Source: Promethearchaeota archaeon
Lineage (GTDB): Archaea > Asgardarchaeota > Lokiarchaeia > Sigyniarchaeales > SOKP01
Length of the DNA: 64,000 bases
Direction: 5' to 3'
NCBI GenBank assembly: GCA_019058245.1
Contig: JAHPZJ010000023.1
Location: 34,028 to 98,027 of the forward strand
A program made the position numbers and the translations under genes. Below are positions 3,866-20,210 of this stretch, piece after piece; within the stretch, counting starts at the first letter, position 1; every line of letters starts with the position of its first letter. A model generated the notes under the pieces. The model was not told the origin of the DNA and did not search any database. It saw only the letters and a program-made list of their open reading frames with translations.

Positions 3866-4222
3866 ATTTAAGTTTTTCTAAACAATATTATAATTTTTTA
3901 GATATTTTATAAAATATATTACAACAAAAACTTTAACCAATGAACGGATCATTAGGAGTCATGGTTTTTAGTAAACAAAGTTTAAATGACTAGAATTTAA
4001 TTAAAATATTTTATCAATTTTGTTGAACAAATTTTAAATTTTCAAATTGGAAATGATTGAATCTAAAGAAATATGATAAACAATAAAAAATCTACTTAAC
4101 TAAAGAAAGTAAAAAAATTATGAAATGAATAATAATTTAATAAAATAGAAATCTTAAATATTATATCCAAAATTTCATATTTCTAATCTAACAAATCAAC
4201 TAAAAATCCAATTAATTAAAAG

Positions 4223-6754: not shown

Positions 6755-7252
6755 TTACTTTTTTTCCCTTTCTTTCCCAATCAAATCCACAAAAGAACTG
6801 GATTCTTTAATGGTGTTTAATACAAAATGAGTATTTGTACGCTCTACATTTGGAGATTTATGAATTTGCTTTATCATTTTACTTAATTCCTCTCGCGTTT
6901 TAAACTTTGCTAATATAAGAGCATCATAAGTTCCTGTGATATCGTAAACAGCAAAAACATTAGGATTGTTAGCAATTTCTTCTTCAACTTCGAACATTTT
7001 TCCTTTGGAAATGGTTACTTCAATAATTGCTACAACTTCATATCCTAATCGCTCAAAATTAATCTTGGCACCATAATCTACTATAATACCATTAGTCTCT
7101 AGATTTTCAAGGTGATTTTTAATAGTAACTGGGGATTTATTGCCTAAAGCTTTAGCAATTTGTCGAAGAGAGAATCGACCATCTGTACTTAGTTTTTTCA
7201 GGATCTCAATATCTAAGTCAGATAAATCATAAGTACTCATTCGTTCAGTCAT
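6755..7252 (-). CDS. Lrp/AsnC family transcriptional regulator
   Basis: LSDLDIEIL...DGR HTH and YDITGTYDA RAM motif. Start refined to ATG 7252, about 25 nt downstream of TTTTATATT. Confidence 0.92.
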   Translation of the reverse strand: MTERMSTYDLSDLDIEILKKLSTDGRFSLRQIAKALGNKSPVTIKNHLENLETNGIIVDYGAKINFERLGYEVVAIIEVTISKGKMFEVEEEIANNPNVFAVYDITGTYDALILAKFKTREELSKMIKQIHKSPNVERTNTHFVLNTIKESSSFVDLIGKEREKK

Positions 7253-7292
7253 ATTATTAGTAAGATAATTAATTAATATAAAATTATTCATT

Positions 7293-7329
7293 TGTCCATT
7301 AAATATAAGAAAAAAGACCCATATGATCA
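7293..7329. promoter_or_regulatory. TGTCCA / TGATCA boxes 31 bp apart, upstream of Lrp1
   Basis: TGTCCA at 7293 and TGATCA at 7324. The TATA-to-box context closely matches the Lrp2 upstream region (11393-11425). Confidence 0.5.
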
Positions 7330-7444
7330 TGTTATTGTCTTTATCTTACAAGTCCTTCAATAATGATTTTATTATAATGATTTAAATTTTCTAGATTCTT
7401 GATTTCTATTATCATTTAATTTGTTATATAAGAGAGTATTTTTT

Positions 7445-8147
7445 ATGAAAAATGTATCATATATTAGATTTAACGAGGCGGATATACTTCAAAAAGCAAG
7501 CAACGAAAAGTGGATTGGAAATGGAACTTCAGAAAAGCCTTTTATAATCGAATCTAGCACAGCGTATTACTATATCCCTCCATACTTAAAAATATCTCTC
7601 TATACATTGTAATAAAAAACTGCACATTCGATAAGATCTTTTTATCTAAATGTAAAAATTTCAGGTTTGAGGATGTTCTTTTAACTATTTAGAGTTATCT
7701 AAATGTTCGGAAATTGAAATTAATAATTGTTCCTTTGAAGACAGATTAAAACTTCATAAAATTGCTAATGTGTCTATTCAAGATTCTCTTATACCATCTC
7801 TTTTTCTTTTTGTATGTTATGAAAATCATTTTAATAAATGTACAATTACTGAAATCCGTAATAAATTTAGTAGAGCTAATAAATTTTAAAATAATTCTAC
7901 TCATGTTGATTTATATAATATTTTAAGTGATAATTTGATATCTATTCTTCTTAAAAATTTAGGATTTGTTGGGCTAGGAATCATTTTCTTACTAGGTCTA
8001 ATATTTTTATATTATACTTATTCCGATAGTTTTCCCCATATGAAGACTCTTTTTTTTAGACTTAGTATTATTTTTTTTGTAATCCCTATTATTAATTACC
8101 AAGCTTATAATAAAACGAAAAATTATCCAGATAATCAAATTAGTTAA
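7445..8147 (+). pseudogene. Degraded beta-helix-like repeat membrane protein (paralog of 8294..8938)
   Basis: Starts with GNGTSEKPFIIE and has xCxF repeats. Two frameshifts and a TAA at 7887 where the paralog has GAA. Confidence 0.75.
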
Positions 8148-8237
8148 AAAAGATTAGGATAATTTAAATATATAAATAATTAAACCTCTGTGGCTCTCAA
8201 ATTTAAATATTAATAAACTTATATAATACATGAAATC

Positions 8238-8321
8238 ATGAACCAAATGAATAATGAATTTGTCTTATACAAAGGGGCAAAGATCGAAGTGAAAAATGGA
8301 GTGGAAATGGAACTTCCGTAG
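8238..8321 (+). pseudogene. N-terminal relic of an LRR gene (paralog of 9025), fused out of frame to the next gene
   Basis: MNQMNNEFVLYKGAKIEVKNGV matches MNNSKVEFVLYKGNKIEVRNGV. Confidence 0.75.
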
Positions 8322-8938
8322 ATCCCTTTATCATTGAAACTACTCATTCATTCTCAGATGATTCTGTTATCAGAAACACATATTTACACATATTGGTAAG
8401 GAATTGTGAGTTTGGTTTATTATCTTTAAAAAAATGTAAAAATTTCAGATTTGAGAGTTGTACATTTGAGGTTTTAGGATTATCTAAATGCTCGGAAATG
8501 AATGTTAAGAACTGTTCTTTCAATCATTCAATAGAGATTCGATATGGTCAAAATATACATATTCAGAACTCTCATATACCATTTCTTATCTTTTCCATGA
8601 GTTATGGAAACTATTTTAAAAACTGTACAATTAACAAAATTTTTAATTACTTCAGTAGAGCAAATAAATTTGAAAACATTAATTCACCTGGTAATTTTAG
8701 TATTATTTTAAGAGAAAGTTTGAAAAAATATTATCTAAAATGCCTAGGACTTATTATAGTAGGAGTTATTTCTCTATTATCTGCCATTATAATTTTTTCT
8801 AATAATTATGCGGATTCAGTTGATTGGTTATTAGTAGGAGGTCTAAGCTTAATGACTATTATCACTTTTACAATAACTATCGCTCTTTACCTTGATTCTA
8901 GAAAAATGAATCATCTTTCAGATAATCAAGTTATTTAA
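8294..8938 (+). pseudogene. 5'-truncated beta-helix-like repeat protein with 2 C-terminal TM helices
   Basis: The frame is open from KWSGNGTSVDPFIIE but the native start is missing. The only available start is TTG 8393. Confidence 0.65.
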
Positions 8939-9024
8939 ATAAGATTAGTTATTTTTCAAAAAATATAAAGAATTAAATCTTCTTAACTCTTAAATATAAG
9001 TATGAAAAAAACTTTCACGAAATT

Positions 9025-9747
9025 ATGAATAATAGTAAAGTAGAGTTTGTTTTATACAAAGGAAATAAGATCGAAGTAAGAAATGGAGTATTAGAACTCC
9101 CATATGATATTGAATTTGAAACCTTCGATGAAATTGAAGGGCTTGAAAAAATGACCTCCTTGAAGAAATTGAAATGCAAATCATTTTACCTTAAAAAAAT
9201 AGATAACCTTGAACACCTCCAAAGTCTAGAGTCTTTAATTCTTAAAGAAAGCCCTTGGCTCACTAAAATTGAAAATCTTGGCACCCTTACTAATTTAAAA
9301 CTCCTCAATCTTACTGATAGTCATATTGCTGAAATCGAAAATTTAGAAAACCTTAGAAATTTGGAAGTCTTGATTCTAAGAAAATCATTTTTTAATAATA
9401 CCTACGAAAATTATATTACAGAAATTAAAGGCCTTGAAAATTTAATTAACTTAAAAAACCTCGACCTGTTTGGTAATAAAATCAAAATAATTAAAGGCCT
9501 CAATGCTCTAATCAATCTTAAAATTTTATGTCTTACCTGTAATCAAATTACGGAAATTAAAGGGCTCGAAAATTTAATCAATCTAGAACAATTATATCTT
9601 GAACATAATAAAATTACTAAAATAAAAGGACTTGAGAACTTTGGCAATTTAAAGGTATTAAGAATCCAAGATAACGGTCCTTTTGATGAAGACTCTATTA
9701 GTCGCTTAAAAGATATGAAAAATTCAGGGATTGACGTCTGGTATTGA
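9025..9747 (+). CDS. Leucine-rich repeat protein (SDS22-like)
   Basis: Repeated N.ITEIKGLENL.NL..L.L units. Confidence 0.92.
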   Translation: MNNSKVEFVLYKGNKIEVRNGVLELPYDIEFETFDEIEGLEKMTSLKKLKCKSFYLKKIDNLEHLQSLESLILKESPWLTKIENLGTLTNLKLLNLTDSHIAEIENLENLRNLEVLILRKSFFNNTYENYITEIKGLENLINLKNLDLFGNKIKIIKGLNALINLKILCLTCNQITEIKGLENLINLEQLYLEHNKITKIKGLENFGNLKVLRIQDNGPFDEDSISRLKDMKNSGIDVWY

Positions 9748-10069
9748 GAATATTTTTACTACTCAAGTTAGCGAATATCCGTTTTTAAAAGTATGAGTTA
9801 TTAATTGATCTTTTAATGTATCCTACTTCTGTTAAAAATTTTAGAATTTTTATATTAATTTATGCAGGTGTTCATTATGAAATAAATATATTGACCCATG
9901 TGATCATTTTATATCTCGACAAAAATCATAGGTTAAATCAATTGATCACTTTCTAAGTATAATATATATCAAGCACTAATATTTGTTTCCAATTATGTAA
10001 GCAAATAAGGTAAAAAATGTGAAGGTTTATATATATGTGATCACAATTATATTTATAGAACAAAAAATG

Positions 10070-10118: not shown

Positions 10119-10472
10119 ATGTCATTAAAATGCCCTGTTTGTGGAACGGAATATTATCATGACCGAAAAATATGTCAAGTATGTGAAGATAAATCAATCT
10201 ATAGTGGTTTAATATGTACTGATGAAAATAAACCTCAAAAGTGGAATTGCGATATCTTCTTAGAATGTGATACATTAGCATTTGGAAGATATAAACCAAA
10301 TAATGCTTATGTTCAAATCGCCAGTGAACCGAAATTTTCAGACTTTAATACAAAAAATGCATACAACTGGAATTGTGTTTCAATAAATAAAATTGAAAGT
10401 ATAGAAGCACCATTAATAACATTTCCAACGATTCCTAAAAGAGATGTAAATACTTCACTGGTTTATGAATGA
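10119..10472 (+). CDS. Zn-ribbon protein of unknown function
   Basis: CPVC...CQVC with two WNC motifs. Confidence 0.75.
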   Translation: MSLKCPVCGTEYYHDRKICQVCEDKSIYSGLICTDENKPQKWNCDIFLECDTLAFGRYKPNNAYVQIASEPKFSDFNTKNAYNWNCVSINKIESIEAPLITFPTIPKRDVNTSLVYE

Positions 10473-10870: not shown

Positions 10871-11356
10871 TTATTTCTGCTCGGATAATAGTTCCTCTGA
10901 TTGTATCAATTGATTAAAATCAGTTCGTTCTTTAATTACATTGAGTACTAAATGAGTATTAGTTTTTACTATATATTCCAAACTGTTTAAATTTTTTACA
11001 AAAGTATTCAAATCTTTACGAGATTTAAATCTTGTTAAAAGTACTGCATCATATTCTCCAGTTATGTCATATACGCCAAAAATGTGTGGATCTTGGGATA
11101 TTCCGCGCTCTATCTCAATCATCTTACCTTTAGAGATGGTTAATTCGATTAGTGCAATTATATCAAATCCCAGTTTTTCATAATCAATATTTAAACTATA
11201 ATTTTTTATGATTTTAGCTTCTTCTAATTCATTAATATGTTTATTAATGGTGGTTGGAGATTTATTTAATCTGTCAGCGATGGGACGTAGCTTTAATCGT
11301 GAATCTTCATTTAAAATACCCAAAATTTCTAGGTCTAATTCCTCTGCTTTTTTCAT
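10871..11356 (-). CDS. Lrp/AsnC family transcriptional regulator, divergent from glnA1
   Basis: HTH plus YDITGEYDA; close paralog of the 6755 gene (shared ISKGKM). Confidence 0.93.
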   Translation of the reverse strand: MKKAEELDLEILGILNEDSRLKLRPIADRLNKSPTTINKHINELEEAKIIKNYSLNIDYEKLGFDIIALIELTISKGKMIEIERGISQDPHIFGVYDITGEYDAVLLTRFKSRKDLNTFVKNLNSLEYIVKTNTHLVLNVIKERTDFNQLIQSEELLSEQK

Positions 11357-11411
11357 TTTTTATCTACCTATTAATAATATTGTACGATCTTAAATATAAA
11401 TTATTTCATTT

Positions 11412-11590
11412 TGTCCAATGAATTTGGAGATATATTATAATATTTCCAATTTAATTATTTATTGTTATTAAAATTAGATCACTTGTCCAGAATTTATTTT
11501 AATATAATTGTATATGTCCAAAAATACTTAATATTATTGAACAGAGGCAAAGTTTTTATAATGATTATACAATATTTGATCATAATATAA
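11412..11590 (+). promoter_or_regulatory. glnA1 promoter with phased TGTCCA boxes and TATA
   Basis: TGTCCA at 11412, 11484 and 11515; TTTCCA 11443; TGAACA 11538; TTTATA 11555; TGATCA 11577. Confidence 0.75.
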
Positions 11591-11640
11591 CTTTTAAATA
11601 AAAATATAACTAGAAAAAAAAATATAATTTAAGAAATATT

Positions 11641-13143
11641 ATGACATCAACAAAAGTTAGTCTTCAAAGCGGTAAGATTAGTCCAGATTTAGAAACGATT
11701 AGTACCGCGAAAAAGATATTAGAACAAGAAAAGGTAAAATTTGTCCTATGTGCATTTACTGACGTTCGAGGAATATTTCAGAGTTTTACTACTCCTGTAC
11801 ACCATTTTTTGAAAGGAGATCAATATTTTGAAACTGGAATTGGGTTCGATGGTTCTAGCATAAGAGGCTTTAGAGAGCTTCATACAAGTGATATGATTTT
11901 TTATCCAGATCCTCAAGCACTATATGTCCTCCCATGGACAGAAGGAATTCAAAAAACAGCGGTTATAATAGGTAGTATAAGAGAGCCTTTTGGGAGTATA
12001 GAAGCGGCAGATTGTGATCCTCGAGGTTATGTTGGTCAGCGAGCAGTAGATAAAGCTGCTAGTATGGGATATACCCCATATTTTGGACCTGAAATTGAGT
12101 TTTTTGTGTTTAAATCGATTGATCCAAGTACCTTACACTATGATCTTTTTGTTAGTCCTAAAGGCGGTGCTGGCGACAGTTGGGGACCCCCTCGGGTTGA
12201 TCCAGTATCACCAGAAACGGATATTGGAGGGTACATCTTACGACCTAAGGAAGCATATTTTAGAAATCCCCCAGAAGATACAACTTATGCTTATCGTAAT
12301 GATCTCACATATGCTCTTGAAACAATGGGATATACCGTTGAGATGCATCACCATGAAGTTTCAACAAAAGGTCAAGTTGAACTTAATTACCGATATAGCG
12401 ATTTAATTGATACAGCGGACAAAGTCCAAATATACAAACTCGCAGCAAGAAACATTGCTGCTAAATACGGATGGATCGCAACATTTATGCCGAAACCTAT
12501 TTATTTAGATAACGCAAGTGGAATGCATGTCCATAATTCAATATTTAAGGACGGTGAGAACGCTTTTTGGGATCCTGATGATGATTATGCGGAAATAAGT
12601 CAAATATGTCGGTATTATATTGGAGGTCTTTTAGAACATGCTGAAGCTCTAACAGCAATCTGTTGTCCAACTGTTAATTCATATAAGCGATTAGTACCTG
12701 GTTTTGAAGCACCAATAAACATTATGTATAGTAGAAGAAATAGATCGGCATTAATCCGTATACCAATGTATCTAAAAGGTGAAAAATATAAAAATCGTCG
12801 AAGACTAGAATATCGAGGGGTGGATCCTTCAACAAACTCTTATTTTGCATTTGCTGCTATTCTTACTGCAGGATTGGATGGAATAAAGAAGAAAATCGAT
12901 CCTGGTGATCCAGTAGATAGAGATGTTTATGAAATGTCAGAATCAGAGAAAAAAGCCGCAGGGGTAAAACAATTACCAACTACTTTAAAAGATGCGCTAG
13001 ATGTATTAGAGAGTGATTCAATATCTAAAGAAATTTTAGGTTCACATCTCTATGATGCTTTTGTAGAATACAAAACAAATGAATGGAATCAGTACTGTCT
13101 TTATGTAACTCCATGGGAGATTATGAAGTATCTAGATTACTAA
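11641..13143 (+). CDS. glnA: Glutamine synthetase type I (long form with GSI-beta-like insertion)
   Basis: FDGSSI, GPEIEF, HHEV, FMPKP, SGMHVH, SYKRLVPGFEAP, NRSALIRIP. Confidence 0.95.
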   Translation: MTSTKVSLQSGKISPDLETISTAKKILEQEKVKFVLCAFTDVRGIFQSFTTPVHHFLKGDQYFETGIGFDGSSIRGFRELHTSDMIFYPDPQALYVLPWTEGIQKTAVIIGSIREPFGSIEAADCDPRGYVGQRAVDKAASMGYTPYFGPEIEFFVFKSIDPSTLHYDLFVSPKGGAGDSWGPPRVDPVSPETDIGGYILRPKEAYFRNPPEDTTYAYRNDLTYALETMGYTVEMHHHEVSTKGQVELNYRYSDLIDTADKVQIYKLAARNIAAKYGWIATFMPKPIYLDNASGMHVHNSIFKDGENAFWDPDDDYAEISQICRYYIGGLLEHAEALTAICCPTVNSYKRLVPGFEAPINIMYSRRNRSALIRIPMYLKGEKYKNRRRLEYRGVDPSTNSYFAFAAILTAGLDGIKKKIDPGDPVDRDVYEMSESEKKAAGVKQLPTTLKDALDVLESDSISKEILGSHLYDAFVEYKTNEWNQYCLYVTPWEIMKYLDY

Positions 13144-13430: not shown

Positions 13431-14390
13431 ATGGTATATAGTAGAAGTTTTGAGAGAAGTATAATTAAACTTGGTAATTCTATGGCAATAACATTTCCTC
13501 AGGAATGGTTCCAAAACTCAGATTTACAGGAACATTCAAAAGTATTTGTTCTCCCCGTTGATGATGATACCTTAATTATTCAAAGAAATAATTATATAGA
13601 TTCTGACTCAATTTTGCACATAGATTTAAATAAATGGCCTTCAGATCTATCAGAGCAATTAATTTTAACTGCTTTCAAACTGAATGTAGATCAATTATAT
13701 GTGAAGTATGATCTCAAGAAAAACAAACAAGATTATTTAGTTATGATTAACAAGCTTCAAAGAAAAATAATAGGCTTTGATTATAGTGTATTAAATGATA
13801 ATAGTGGTATAATTATTCGATTTTTATTAGATTCTACAAAAACCACCTTACCTGAAATTTTGATTGAATTGTTTAATACTCTGAAAGAATTTATTATAGG
13901 GGTGCTTGATAAATCATTGGTAATTGATCAAGGTATTTATCAAGAAAAATTTGCGCGAAAATATCATCTAGGAATACGATTATTGCTTGCAACTCTTTTA
14001 AAATATCCTAAATTAGAAGGTGCTATTAATAGACCAATTATTCGTACACTTGGAGATAGAATTACATTGTTATATTCTAGAGAATTAATGAATCATGTTC
14101 TTGCAATAAAAAATCTACCAAAAGAAATGTTGGAAAAATATTCACAAATTCTAATTGATTTCTCTGATCTAATCTTGAGTATCATTGAAAAATATAATAA
14201 TAATATTAAGGAGGAGCTTTTAATATCTTTTCAAAAAAAAATAGATAAATTAAAAAAATCACTTGATACCATTGATCTTGACATAAAACAAGAGGAAAAT
14301 ATGATTAGAAATGTTATATCAAGATTCTTCAGTATTTGTACAGATTTAATAGAAATATCAATTACAAGAATATTAGAAGCGAAATTGTAA
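13431..14390 (+). CDS. AbrB-domain / PhoU-like archaeal regulator
   Basis: N-terminal RSIIKLGNSMAITFPQEW (AbrB-type) followed by helical bundles. Confidence 0.7.
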   Translation: MVYSRSFERSIIKLGNSMAITFPQEWFQNSDLQEHSKVFVLPVDDDTLIIQRNNYIDSDSILHIDLNKWPSDLSEQLILTAFKLNVDQLYVKYDLKKNKQDYLVMINKLQRKIIGFDYSVLNDNSGIIIRFLLDSTKTTLPEILIELFNTLKEFIIGVLDKSLVIDQGIYQEKFARKYHLGIRLLLATLLKYPKLEGAINRPIIRTLGDRITLLYSRELMNHVLAIKNLPKEMLEKYSQILIDFSDLILSIIEKYNNNIKEELLISFQKKIDKLKKSLDTIDLDIKQEENMIRNVISRFFSICTDLIEISITRILEAKL

Positions 14391-14396
14391 TAAAAA

Positions 14397-14984
14397 ATGA
14401 ATGAATTAGAAAATAGTCACAAAATAAAAAATAGGATAACTATTGCAATAGATGAAGATACAAAACTAATATTAAATAAGCTAAATAATCACTCGGAAAG
14501 TTCTCGATCTGAAACAATAAGAAAAGCAATTAAATTTTATCATAAATTTAAGAAAGTGTTTGATAAAAAAGAAAATGGAGTATCTGCTAAGGTGAACACT
14601 TACTTAGAATTACTCTCTCATGGAGAACACATTATTTTAGATGTAGATCATTATTTAAGTTTCTTAAAGTTCATAGAAAATTCACCTGAAAGAGAAAAAT
14701 TTGAGGACATAAATAAATCAATAGGAAGAGCTCATGCGGAAGAATTTTCTCAGGATCTTGATATTACAACTGTACAGAAAGTGGTGGAACGTCTTGAAGC
14801 ATGTAATTTCTTTAAAATTGTTAAAGATTCATCAAATAGATACACATTATTATTGGGTTCTGATATTCAAAAAAACTTCATTAAAACTTTTCTTGAAGAA
14901 GTGTTAAGAGGTATGGGTTTCAATGTTCAAGTAAAAGAAGGCTTCTCAAAACTTAAAATTAGTTTGGATAATATGTCTTATTAA
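14397..14984 (+). CDS. Ribbon-helix-helix (CopG-like) regulator with a C-terminal putative ligand-binding domain
   Basis: RITIAIDE...SRSETIRKAI; starts 6 nt after the previous gene. Confidence 0.75.
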   Translation: MNELENSHKIKNRITIAIDEDTKLILNKLNNHSESSRSETIRKAIKFYHKFKKVFDKKENGVSAKVNTYLELLSHGEHIILDVDHYLSFLKFIENSPEREKFEDINKSIGRAHAEEFSQDLDITTVQKVVERLEACNFFKIVKDSSNRYTLLLGSDIQKNFIKTFLEEVLRGMGFNVQVKEGFSKLKISLDNMSY

Positions 14985-15033
14985 AATAATTTTAAAAAAA
15001 AATTAAAAAAAAGACTAAAAAATTAATTTGTAT

Positions 15034-15375
15034 CTATAAAATATCTTCACCTTTCTCTTTTGTCCTGATTCTTATTGCATTTTCAATGGGAATTATAAAT
15101 ATTTTTCCATCGCCAGGTTTGCCTGTTTGAGCATTTTCTATAATGGTATTAATAATTTCATCGATATTTATTTTATCGCTAATAACTATCTCCAGTTTCA
15201 ATTTATCAATCCATTCGACACAATATTCCCCAGTTCTCCCCACAAACTTTATTCCCCTTTGACTGCCATGTCCTTTGACTTCATTTACGCTCATTCCTTT
15301 AATTCCTTTATCAAATAATCCAGATTTTACAGCTTCTAATTTTTCTGGTCGTATAAAACATTCAATTTTTTTCAT
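15034..15375 (-). CDS. glnK: PII nitrogen regulatory protein
   Basis: MKKIECFIRPEKL, TGKPGDGKIF and RIRT motifs; directly downstream of amtB. Confidence 0.95.
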   Translation of the reverse strand: MKKIECFIRPEKLEAVKSGLFDKGIKGMSVNEVKGHGSQRGIKFVGRTGEYCVEWIDKLKLEIVISDKINIDEIINTIIENAQTGKPGDGKIFIIPIENAIRIRTKEKGEDIL

Positions 15376-15393
15376 TTTTATTTTATACCTCCT

Positions 15394-16593
15394 TTATACT
15401 TTTTCTCCATGGATTGAAATATCTATTCCAACATACTCTTCTTCCTCAGATGCTCTTAAACCCATAAATTTATCAATCACTTTAGCTATTACCCAAGTTA
15501 CTACAAAAGTATATACAATTGTAACTATAACTCCTACTGTTTGAGTCCATACTTGTCCAGAGTTGCCTGTAATTAAACTTGTAGCCCCCACACTAGCAAA
15601 AATTCCAGTAGCAATTGCTCCCCAGATACCACCCCATCCATGAACAGCCCACGCATCTAAAGATTCATCAATTTTCGATTTTGAACGCCAAGTAAGTGCA
15701 CCATAACAGATTGCAGCAACAACAGCTCCAATTATCAATGCAGCCCATGGTTGAACATAGCCAGCAGCAGGAGTAATTGCAACTAGTCCCGCTAAACCAC
15801 CTGTTGCTAATCCAAGAACACTAAATTTTCCTGTTTTATAGTATTCTATAATCATCCAAATTAAACCAGAAGTACTCGCCGCTATGTGAGTATTAACCAT
15901 AGCTAATACCGCAGTACTGTTTGCAGCTAAAGCACTTCCACCATTAAATCCAAACCATCCAATCCAAAGTAGTCCCATTCCAAGTAATACATAAGGAATA
16001 TTTGAAGGCTCCATGGGTTCTTTCTGATATCCTTTCCTTGGACCAATAACCAAGGCGATTGCTAAAGACGCAAATCCTACATTTATATGAACGACCGTGC
16101 CTCCAGCGAAATCTAGGGCGCCTAGAGCTTTTAACCACCCGCCATCACCCCAAACCCAATGAGCTATAGGAGAATATACTATTACGAGCCAGATTGAAAT
16201 AAATATCATGAATGCCTTAAAATTTACTCTCTCTGCGAAAGGACTTGCTATAATCGCTACAGTAATTATTGCAAACATTAACTGAAACACCATATATAAT
16301 AGATGTGGTATTGCATCAGAATATACTGGATATGCATCCGTTCCTACTCCAAAAAGTCCAAGGAAATTAAAACCTCCAATAAATCCACCACCAATATCAG
16401 GAGCAAAAGCAAAACTATAACCAATTATAAACCATGCAACTGTTACAATTGATATTGAGACAAAACACATTGCCATCATATTTATAATATTCTTTTTACG
16501 TAATAGCCCCCCATAAAAGAATGCTAGACCCGGAGTCATAATAAAAACTAACCCAGTACATATTAAGACAAAAGCTATATCTGCACCCGCCAA
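15394..16593 (-). CDS. amtB: Ammonium transporter
   Basis: PGLAFFYGG, FQLMFA, DFAGGTVVH, WFGFNGGS and AVHG (twin His retained). TTG start. Confidence 0.96.
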   Translation of the reverse strand: MAGADIAFVLICTGLVFIMTPGLAFFYGGLLRKKNIINMMAMCFVSISIVTVAWFIIGYSFAFAPDIGGGFIGGFNFLGLFGVGTDAYPVYSDAIPHLLYMVFQLMFAIITVAIIASPFAERVNFKAFMIFISIWLVIVYSPIAHWVWGDGGWLKALGALDFAGGTVVHINVGFASLAIALVIGPRKGYQKEPMEPSNIPYVLLGMGLLWIGWFGFNGGSALAANSTAVLAMVNTHIAASTSGLIWMIIEYYKTGKFSVLGLATGGLAGLVAITPAAGYVQPWAALIIGAVVAAICYGALTWRSKSKIDESLDAWAVHGWGGIWGAIATGIFASVGATSLITGNSGQVWTQTVGVIVTIVYTFVVTWVIAKVIDKFMGLRASEEEEYVGIDISIHGEKV

Positions 16594-18533: not shown

Positions 18534-18612
18534 AGAATTTCAATATAATTTTTACATAAAATATTATCTTATTAATAAAATTGTATCATCTTCATCTTAA
18601 ATGGGATTCTTT

Positions 18613-18791
18613 TGTCCAGTGAATTTTATCAATTATCATAAATTTTTCATTATAATTTAGGTTCTATAGAAAATTTAATAATCTTGTCCAGAGAATATTC
18701 TAGGATTTGCTTTTCTGTCCATAATATATAGGTTTTACTGGTCAAATATAAACCTTTATATATTGTTTCACACTATTTGTTCATAATATAA
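18613..18791 (+). promoter_or_regulatory. glnA2 promoter with phased TGTCCA boxes and TATA
   Basis: TGTCCA at 18613, 18685 and 18716; TTTTCA 18644; TGGTCA 18739; TTTATA 18755; TGTTCA 18778. Confidence 0.75.
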
Positions 18792-18857
18792 TTTAAAAAA
18801 GAAAATATAATTTAGTATAATAAAATATATTTGAAGAAAAAAATAGAATGAAAAGAA

Positions 18858-20210
18858 ATGATTGAAAAAGATGATCCAGAACGCTGGAAAATTTGCGATA
18901 AAGTTATAGAGACGGTAAAAGAGCAGGATATCAAACTAGTTTACTTTCAATGGACCGATATTCATGGTATACTTAAATCATTTGAGATTAATGCAAAACG
19001 AATCGAAGATTTTCTCCAAGATGGAGAACATTTCGATGGAAGTTCAATTACTGGATATGGAGCTATAGAAGAATCCGATAAAACTGCTATACCAGATCCT
19101 AGTACTTTTGCAATTATGCCTTGGCGAAAGGAGAAAAAAGTCGCTAGATTCATCTGTGATATATACAAACCAGATGGAAATAGATATGAAGGTGATCCGC
19201 GTTATATCCTTCAAAAAGCAGTTAAAAAAGCTTCTGAATTTGGATATACTTATTATTGCGCTCCTGAACTTGAGTTTTTCGTAATCGATACAGATACTGA
19301 GAAGGCATTTAAACCTGGCGATTTGCGTGGATATTTTGATTATGATCCTTATGATATCAACGAACGAATGAGATATAGGATTAATGAATATTGTGATGCT
19401 ATGGGAATTGAAACTGAAGCAATACATCATGAAGTTGCCTATGGTCAACATGAAGTAGATTTTAAATATGATAAAGCAGTAACATCAGCGGACAATACGG
19501 TTACCCTTAAAACCATAATTAAAACTGTTGCAGCTGAAGATGGTATGATTGGAACCTTTATGCCAAAACCATTTGCAGGTATCAATGGTAGTGGTATGCA
19601 TGTTCACCAAAGTATGATGAAAGATGGAAAAAACGCTTTCTATGATGAGAAGGATAATAATTATATATCAATGACCATGAAGAAATTTATCGCAGGACAA
19701 TTAAAACATGCAAAAGCGATGTGTGCAGTGTTAAGTAGTTGGCCAAACTCTTATAAACGTCTAGTTCCTGGATATGAAGCTCCAGTATATATAGCTTGGG
19801 GTTTTAGGAATAGATCACCATTAATAAGGGTCCCCGATTTTAGTGGAAAGCCAAGTTCTGCTCGCTGTGAGATACGATGTCCAGATCCTGCAGGGAATCC
19901 CTATCTTCAATTTGCTGTTTTATTAGCGACAGGTTTGGAGGGAATAATATCTGATGATATTGAAGTTCCTGAAGCTACTGATAAAAATGTATATCATTTT
20001 TCATCCAAAGATCTTGAAAAAGCAGGAATTGATGCATTACCGGGAAGTTTAAGGCAGGCCATTATAGAATTTAGGAATTCAGAATTTATGAAAGAAATAT
20101 TTGGAGAAGAGCCTTGGAAAAACTTCTATTATGCTAAATTGGAGGAATTTGACGCCTATAGAATTAATGTAGGTCAATGGGAAAGAGATAGATATATTGT
20201 AAAATTGTAA
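18858..20210 (+). CDS. glnA: Glutamine synthetase type I (GSI-alpha-like)
   Basis: FDGSSI, APELEF, HHEVAYGQHE, NGSGMHVHQS, SYKRLVPGYEAP. Confidence 0.93.
   Translation: MIEKDDPERWKICDKVIETVKEQDIKLVYFQWTDIHGILKSFEINAKRIEDFLQDGEHFDGSSITGYGAIEESDKTAIPDPSTFAIMPWRKEKKVARFICDIYKPDGNRYEGDPRYILQKAVKKASEFGYTYYCAPELEFFVIDTDTEKAFKPGDLRGYFDYDPYDINERMRYRINEYCDAMGIETEAIHHEVAYGQHEVDFKYDKAVTSADNTVTLKTIIKTVAAEDGMIGTFMPKPFAGINGSGMHVHQSMMKDGKNAFYDEKDNNYISMTMKKFIAGQLKHAKAMCAVLSSWPNSYKRLVPGYEAPVYIAWGFRNRSPLIRVPDFSGKPSSARCEIRCPDPAGNPYLQFAVLLATGLEGIISDDIEVPEATDKNVYHFSSKDLEKAGIDALPGSLRQAIIEFRNSEFMKEIFGEEPWKNFYYAKLEEFDAYRINVGQWERDRYIVKL

Follow-up and report, generated by a model that had tools for sequence, protein, structure and literature searches.

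The window, by which we mean the whole stretch of 64,000 nucleotides analysed here, comes from a 3.09-Mb, 76%-complete genome of a Promethearchaeota archaeon, and close relatives of the window's Lrp are found in Promethearchaeota (Lokiarchaeia) genomes. It harbours a nitrogen cluster made up of GOGAT-type genes, lrp2, a Zn-ribbon-like ORF, lrp1, glnA1, a ribbon-helix-helix (RHH) regulator, amtB-glnK, nadE, glnA2 and carAB. The genes that matter most for what follows are these:

6755–7252, minus strand: lrp2, the genus-native Lrp; true start most likely at 7252, probably leaderless
10119–10472, plus strand: small Zn-ribbon-like ORF, found in many relatives between lrp and glnA
10871–11356, minus strand: lrp1, Lrp/AsnC regulator (wHTH + RAM; PF13412/PF01037), back-to-back with glnA1
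11641–13143, plus strand: glnA1, type I glutamine synthetase, 500 aa (TIGR00653)
14397–14984, plus strand: RHH regulator, which travels with glnA1/amtB-glnK
18858–20210, plus strand: glnA2, type I glutamine synthetase, 450 aa, of the type common in the genus

Both Lrp paralogues consist of an N-terminal winged HTH and a C-terminal RAM domain (PF13412/PF13404 + PF01037), and the best PDB matches of lrp1 are 8q90 and FL11. The top NCBIfam model for the two proteins is that of haloarchaeal Lrp, NF041396, at 108 bits for lrp1 and 116 bits for lrp2, below the 190-bit cut-off. In quick trees, lrp1 falls outside the genus-native group to which lrp2 belongs, so that the two are not a recent pair, and lrp1 and GlnA2 both branch apart from genus-native groups. 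GlnA1 and GlnA2 share about 35% identity. The distribution of glnA1 is patchy, at 4/54 genus genomes and 18/151 class genomes. A family search with the Zn-ribbon-like ORF gave no confident family. Behind glnA1, a 319-aa ORF (13431–14390) looks AbrB-like by eye at its N-terminus, gave no Pfam or NCBIfam match and occurs only in the closest relatives examined. The few genus genomes with the RHH gene also have amtB-glnK (all within 14397–16593 in the window); the RHH protein is a candidate ammonium-uptake regulator. At 1265–2590, the first gene of the glutamate-synthase-type operon is a fusion of a CCG domain with a 4Fe-4S domain (HdrB/HdrC-like); this pair also stands behind an Lrp homologue in two Thermoplasmata loci (L127 and L132) and in L134.

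The two glnA genes, both on the plus strand, are preceded by boxes in the same arrangement, as had been described from the sequence alone. Counted from 11412 and 18613, TGTCCA stands at 0, +72 and +103, TTTCCA or TTTTCA at +31, an inverted TGAACA or TGGTCA at +126, and TTTATA at +143 or +142. For the last box, the hexamer TGWTCA is indeed at +165; the 18-mer that had been given for that place, TATTTGWTCATAATATAA, begins at +161. The alignment of both regions, which the sequence-only reading had named as a check, is gapless from about −43 to +200 (about 245 bp), with 111/183 identical positions against 62 expected; in shifted registers the count is at most 72. A scan of the 3.09-Mb genome found the phased array nowhere else, except for a 3-of-5 match at a Zn-ribbon paralogue on contig C7; since the pattern was taken from the two promoters themselves, the scan speaks to absence elsewhere and not to significance.

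The hexamers are halves of a 14-bp palindrome, TG(A/G)ACA-WW-TGT(T/C)CA, with TGATCA variants; in this reading, TGTCCA-type boxes supply right halves and the inverted box at +126 supplies a left one. An unbiased gapped-palindrome search by enumeration was run on 25 non-Asgard regions flanked by an Lrp homologue on one side and glnA or amt on the other, from Micrarchaeota, Woesearchaeota, Desulfurococcales, Geothermarchaeum and others. It ranked GAACA-N2-TGTTC first (z 11.8; null maximum 6.1), and in one Micrarchaeota genome the sole match with at most one mismatch sits in the lrp-glnA/amt locus. Placed on the glnA1 and glnA2 promoters, the palindrome gives six site centres at −1, 30, 71, 102, 133 and 164, that is, spacings of 31/41/31/31/31 bp, and only with a 2-bp spacer do the last two gaps both come to 31 bp. 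Scored with the non-Asgard matrix, all six centres are within the top 10 of 240 positions. Most sites in the window have one good half only, and the best full-site score is 4.2 bits; seven held-out DPANN loci likewise gave a weak full-palindrome match, with 2–4 mismatches, and in several of these the match consists of a left half joined to the TATA box of lrp. The candidate sites and the elements around them are as follows:

11394–11401, minus strand: predicted lrp1 TATA box, placed from the sequence and from the same position beside site 1 in 21 ancestral-type promoters and in haloarchaea; the lrp1 start is predicted at about 11370
11404–11417: site 1, overlapping the lrp1 BRE, with TGTCCA at 11412 as its right half
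11435–11448: site 2, right half TTTCCA, weak
11476–11489: site 3, AGATCA-CT-TGTCCA, the best full site of the glnA1 promoter
11507–11520: site 4, right half TGTCCA
11538–11551: site 5, with TGAACA as left half and a right half that falls on the glnA1 BRE
11553–11560, plus strand: predicted glnA1 TATA box TTTTTATA, conserved 8/8 in genomes G024 and G070
11569–11582: site 6, lying over the predicted start site (about 11582), with TGATCA at 11577 as its right half
18570–18813, plus strand: glnA2 promoter, with 14-bp sites at 18605, 18636, 18677, 18708, 18739 and 18770, a TATA box at about 18753–18760 and a predicted start site at about 18783
18570–18604: relic lrp-side leader of the glnA2 promoter

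Several sites two or three helical turns apart, with an AT-rich centre, are the criterion for an FFRP operator (PMC2995911), and the sites described here follow this pattern, with one 41-bp gap of four turns. Characterised archaeal Lrp sites are odd 13-mers of the form abcdeWWWedcba (PMC2715240). That form was not recovered, the top palindrome having a 2-bp spacer. This even symmetry, unlike that of the canonical 13-bp sites, is the most interesting deviation from archaeal Lrp sites and somewhat lowers our confidence in Lrp as the reader. Two other descriptions of the boxes were rejected: a single inverted repeat of +103 and +126 with 17-bp spacing, because the 14-bp model covers all six boxes with regular spacing, and a TCCA-N7-TGGA site at box 0, which is present only in glnA1 orthologues. 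Further downstream, both glnA leaders (11586–11612 and 18787–18813) contain a direct repeat, AATATAA(C/T), that is conserved in glnA1 orthologues of other genera and is a possible site of the linked RHH protein.

The common geometry had been taken as selected and not as the product of recent duplication, on the grounds that the spacers were mostly diverged. This is no more than half right: 66/127 spacer positions are identical (52%), against 36% expected (p=1.6e-4). Spacer identity to ancestral-type promoters of the same geometry but separate history is 32%. Moreover, 45 bp on the lrp side are 31/45 identical, though no lrp lies upstream of glnA2. The spacer identity, its lower baseline and the kept leader together indicate that the two promoters are copies; the reading against duplication is not supported, the promoter of glnA2 being homologous to that of glnA1 and retaining the lrp-side leader. 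With regard to direction, the 3' element TGATCATAATATAA at site 6 recurs in glnA1 orthologues of other genera, where it and a divergent lrp accompany glnA1 in 7/11 loci. Since both travel with glnA1, it was glnA2 that received a copy of the lrp1-glnA1 promoter, and the converse, a promoter that arrived with glnA2, was dropped on the same ground, lrp1-like genes and the 3' element being companions of glnA1 outside the genus.

The claim that the boxes are under selection was borne out by the glnA2 promoters of genomes G000 and G070, the latter not used in defining the boxes. Boxes are 35/36 identical, against 73% for the spacers and 77% for four-fold sites (p=7e-4), and the TATA box is 7/8 identical. 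In G024, the stretch from +72 to the TATA box is deleted, with three boxes and the TATA box gone, and in G025 the last box alone is kept. Conservation of boxes and spacing in orthologous glnA2 promoters therefore holds for G070 and is mostly lost in G024 and G025; the arrangement is not universal. In G025, a truncated nadE start is fused to this last box, with another nadE downstream of glnA2 (locus L040), and glnA1 stands directly behind the Zn-ribbon ORF, without lrp1. The array losses, the retention of a leader that serves no purpose at glnA2, and the presence of a co-oriented nadE just upstream would suit a situation in which only the glnA1 array is functional, its copy being a decaying relic of the duplication and glnA2 being read through from nadE. 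Such decay does not account for boxes and TATA box being kept between G000 and G070 while the spacers diverged about neutrally, and we regard it as unlikely.

Two further homologous pieces in the window had been missed, an ancestral-type copy (9869–10043) and the left part of such a promoter at lrp2:

9861–10043, plus strand: ancestral-type promoter before the Zn-ribbon ORF, with TGTTCA at 9869, TGATCA at 9901, 9943 and 10038, CGACAAAA at 9917 and a TATA box at 10026
7276–7329: lrp2 TATA box (7276) and sites 1–2 (TGTCCA at 7293, TGATCA at 7324), the left part of the ancestral promoter

An insertion of LRR and membrane genes (7330–9860), with sites 1–2 on both of its sides, separates lrp2 from the Zn-ribbon ORF; in G024 these two genes adjoin directly, back-to-back. 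In 21 ancestral-type Lokiarchaeia promoters the centres lie at −1, 30, 72, 103, 135 and 167, and some of these promoters carry complete sites, such as TGAACA-AT-TGTCCA. Full sites, such as TGATCA-CT-TGATCA and TGGACA-AT-TGTCCT, also occur in glnA1 promoters of other genera, L272 and L275 being among the loci with complete ones, and the spacing in L270 is 30/41/31/31. Phasing in this set amounts to 22 links against 9.9 expected (0/5000), a count for which the half-site set and the allowed gaps were partly chosen after the data were seen and in which two loci are kin. In haloarchaeal loci from metagenomes, an exact YRTCCA lies beside the lrp BRE in 33/53 (TATCCA 19, TGTCCA 7, CGTCCA 7), its distance to the TATA box of lrp being roughly that seen in Lokiarchaeia, and hexamers at most one mismatch from TGTCCA number 81, against 37 in shuffles.

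Between sites 2 and 3 of the ancestral-type promoters (L003–L030; 9917–9925 in the window) there is a near-invariant element, CGACAAAAA, which occurs also in lineages without Lrp boxes and is possibly the site of a second factor. It is absent from the glnA1 and glnA2 promoters. Locus L020 carries a full palindrome, TTTTGTCG-AG-CGACAAAA.

The nitrogen regulon that had been proposed is a local one, comprising glnA1, glnA2, lrp1, lrp2 and the Zn-ribbon genes; no array was found at amtB-glnK. Elsewhere in the window, at 3941–4037, two or three Lrp-like sites (3941, 3972 and 4024; spacing 31 and 52) lie upstream of a TATA box, at the head of a minus-strand unit of wHTH, Zn-ribbon, HdrBC-like and glutamate synthase genes. 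Site 4024 has the top score among the promoters scanned. The sites are kept in G024 and G070, though these sequences are 82–90% identical; they may extend the regulon to the GOGAT genes.

The reader of the array is most likely the neighbouring Lrp, as had been suggested for a 31-bp-phased array, and the comparative evidence consists of synteny, the haloarchaeal YRTCCA, covariation and the lack of NrpR. The lrp gene is divergent from glnA in 27/30 of the best Lokiarchaeia loci and in 60/77 haloarchaeal loci from metagenomes; the divergent arrangement is also present at 26 non-Asgard loci, of which one pairs lrp with amt. Among Lokiarchaeia Lrps, those with (L/F)R at residues 23–24 have at least two array links in 22/25 cases and all 12 with other residues there have 0–1, counts in which kin are not independent and which represent about 5–6 lineages. 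The recognition helices of lrp1 and lrp2 are nearly the same, which suggests that Lrp1 and Lrp2 could cross-bind the sites.

The exclusion of NrpR and GlnR control in the sequence-only reading agrees with the searches. The NrpR box is GGAA-N6-TTCC and the GlnR/TnrA box TGTNA-N7-TNACA, and neither is present in the glnA1 or glnA2 promoter. A profile search found NrpR (PF01995) in 0/54 genus genomes, with control families detected, and no MerR_1 protein of the GlnR/TnrA type was found in this 76%-complete genome. Three intergenic regions (2795, 3850 and 10071), none of them a glnA promoter, contain an NrpR-like GGGA-N6-TCCC on the downstream side of a TATA box.

Alternatively, an unlinked regulator might read the boxes, or some of them might be basal elements (BRE, initiator), with Lrp binding loosely by DNA shape. 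Sites 1, 5 and 6 do overlap BRE or start-site positions, the sites depart from the canonical 13-bp form, and recognition helices differ among distant archaea that have the motif in common. Against this, sites 2–4 are phased and far from basal elements, and the array is restricted to lrp/glnA-type promoters and lost where the adjacent Lrp has changed, which makes this alternative quite improbable. MetJ is the analogue for RHH proteins that bind tandem 8-bp units, and the RHH protein (14397–14984), whose gene is no more than about 1.5 kb away from glnA1 in 8/11 loci of other genera, could in this manner read the boxes as WTGATCAW units, explaining the even symmetry and the TGATCA-NN-TGATCA of L272; this is very unlikely, given that the arrays follow the Lrp helix-turn-helix and that many RHH-less genomes have arrays, an orthologue being present in only 6/54 genus genomes and 0/5 non-Asgard genomes.

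Lrp control of glnA, which had been put forward as a scheme distinct from NrpR or GlnR control, is not new and has already been published for Halobacterium (PMC2894021) and Sulfolobus (PMC3584215). In Halobacterium, Lrp adjoins and activates glnA, with modest effects of −1.5 in the deletion and +2.1 on overexpression, and an Lrp effect on glnA transcription has been shown only in H. salinarum (PMC2894021). The arrangement in the window resembles that of haloarchaeal Lrp (Halobacterium salinarum OE3923F/Trh4, PMC2894021; Haloferax mediterranei HFX_RS01210, PMC8229911) in that lrp is adjacent and opposite to glnA, and the two share an S-x-x-T-x-x-(N/K)-H helix, an L-R pair and YRTCCA next to the lrp BRE. 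They differ in sequence (about 31% identity, below the NF041396 cut-off) and in the ligand loop, and the groups are not sister in a quick tree with a poorly supported backbone. The haloarchaeal lrp-glnA region is also shorter, with two or three recognisable sites against six here.

Sa-Lrp/Grp of Sulfolobus is a glutamine-responsive protein that binds the glnA and gltB promoters and forms a Gln-induced octamer (PMC3584215, PMC2504300). Its backbone-binding Asp and two Thr are present in lrp1 as D103, T132 and T134 (D102, T132 and T134 in Grp), so the residues that bind the amino-acid backbone are intact. In contrast, the ligand loop of lrp1 reads SKGK (SKGKM), unlike those of Grp and haloarchaeal Lrp, and has no equivalent of Grp Tyr77, the contact of the Gln side chain. 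Sa-Lrp/Grp has neither glnA linkage nor a defined operator, and is global and architectural where the window Lrp would be local. The operators of FL11 (Pyrococcus) and Ss-LrpB (PMC2995911, PMC2715240) are likewise multiple degenerate palindromes with an AT-rich centre and whole-turn spacing at the regulator's own promoter; theirs are odd 13/15-mers with a 3-bp centre, whereas here there are six even 14-mers, one 41-bp gap and another target. With the NrpR and GlnR/TnrA regulons, the proposed scheme has in common that glnA is under nitrogen-status control, but neither box nor regulator of those systems was found.

Our proposal is that the lrp1-glnA1 module entered the lineage as a unit and that its promoter was then duplicated before glnA2, which would place both synthetases under one control, the boxes being kept by selection. 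Dimers of Lrp1 and/or Lrp2 would bind cooperatively to the six degenerate 14-bp sites, which at 31/41/31/31/31 bp would all lie on one helical face. Sites 1–2 cover the lrp BRE and would provide autoregulation. Sites 3–6, four sites at 31 bp, would receive the four dimers of one octamer, covering the glnA BRE and start site. An amino-acid signal would drive octamer assembly and DNA wrapping; glutamine is our first guess and by our judgement somewhat the better candidate, with glutamate or another ligand making up the remainder. By analogy with FL11, LrpA and Ss-LrpB (PMC2995911), the octamer most likely represses glnA in nitrogen plenty, and in nitrogen scarcity glnA may be activated by a dimer that sits on site 5, next to the TATA box. 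Halobacterium Lrp activates glnA, so the repression step may be wrong. We hold the explanation as a whole (a copied lrp-glnA promoter, six Lrp-dimer sites, octamer repression in response to an amino acid and duplication before glnA2) to be probable.

In haloarchaea, genetic work has paired Lrp with glnA since 2010; what is added here is a concrete candidate site. Literature searches for an operator in haloarchaeal glnA promoters found no defined site, and searches for Lrp/glnA nitrogen control in Asgard archaea gave nothing relevant. More speculatively, there may be one ancient archaeal nitrogen switch, a glnA-linked Lrp subfamily in Asgard, DPANN, Thermoproteota and haloarchaea, with an even 14-bp operator that breaks the 13-bp rule and possibly an acidic ligand bound via the conserved SKGK loop, into which Lokiarchaeia wired a second glutamine synthetase by promoter duplication; we consider this possible but doubtful. 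The logic of a local Lrp, phased sites and an amino-acid gene is of a familiar kind. Taken together, our results yield a concrete model for how nitrogen genes may be controlled in Asgard archaea, in a genus without detected NrpR, and the promoter duplication is a clear case of the recruitment of a gene into a regulon. They also offer a candidate operator at base level for the Lrp-glnA pairing, common to Lokiarchaeia and haloarchaea and directly testable in Haloferax or Halobacterium.
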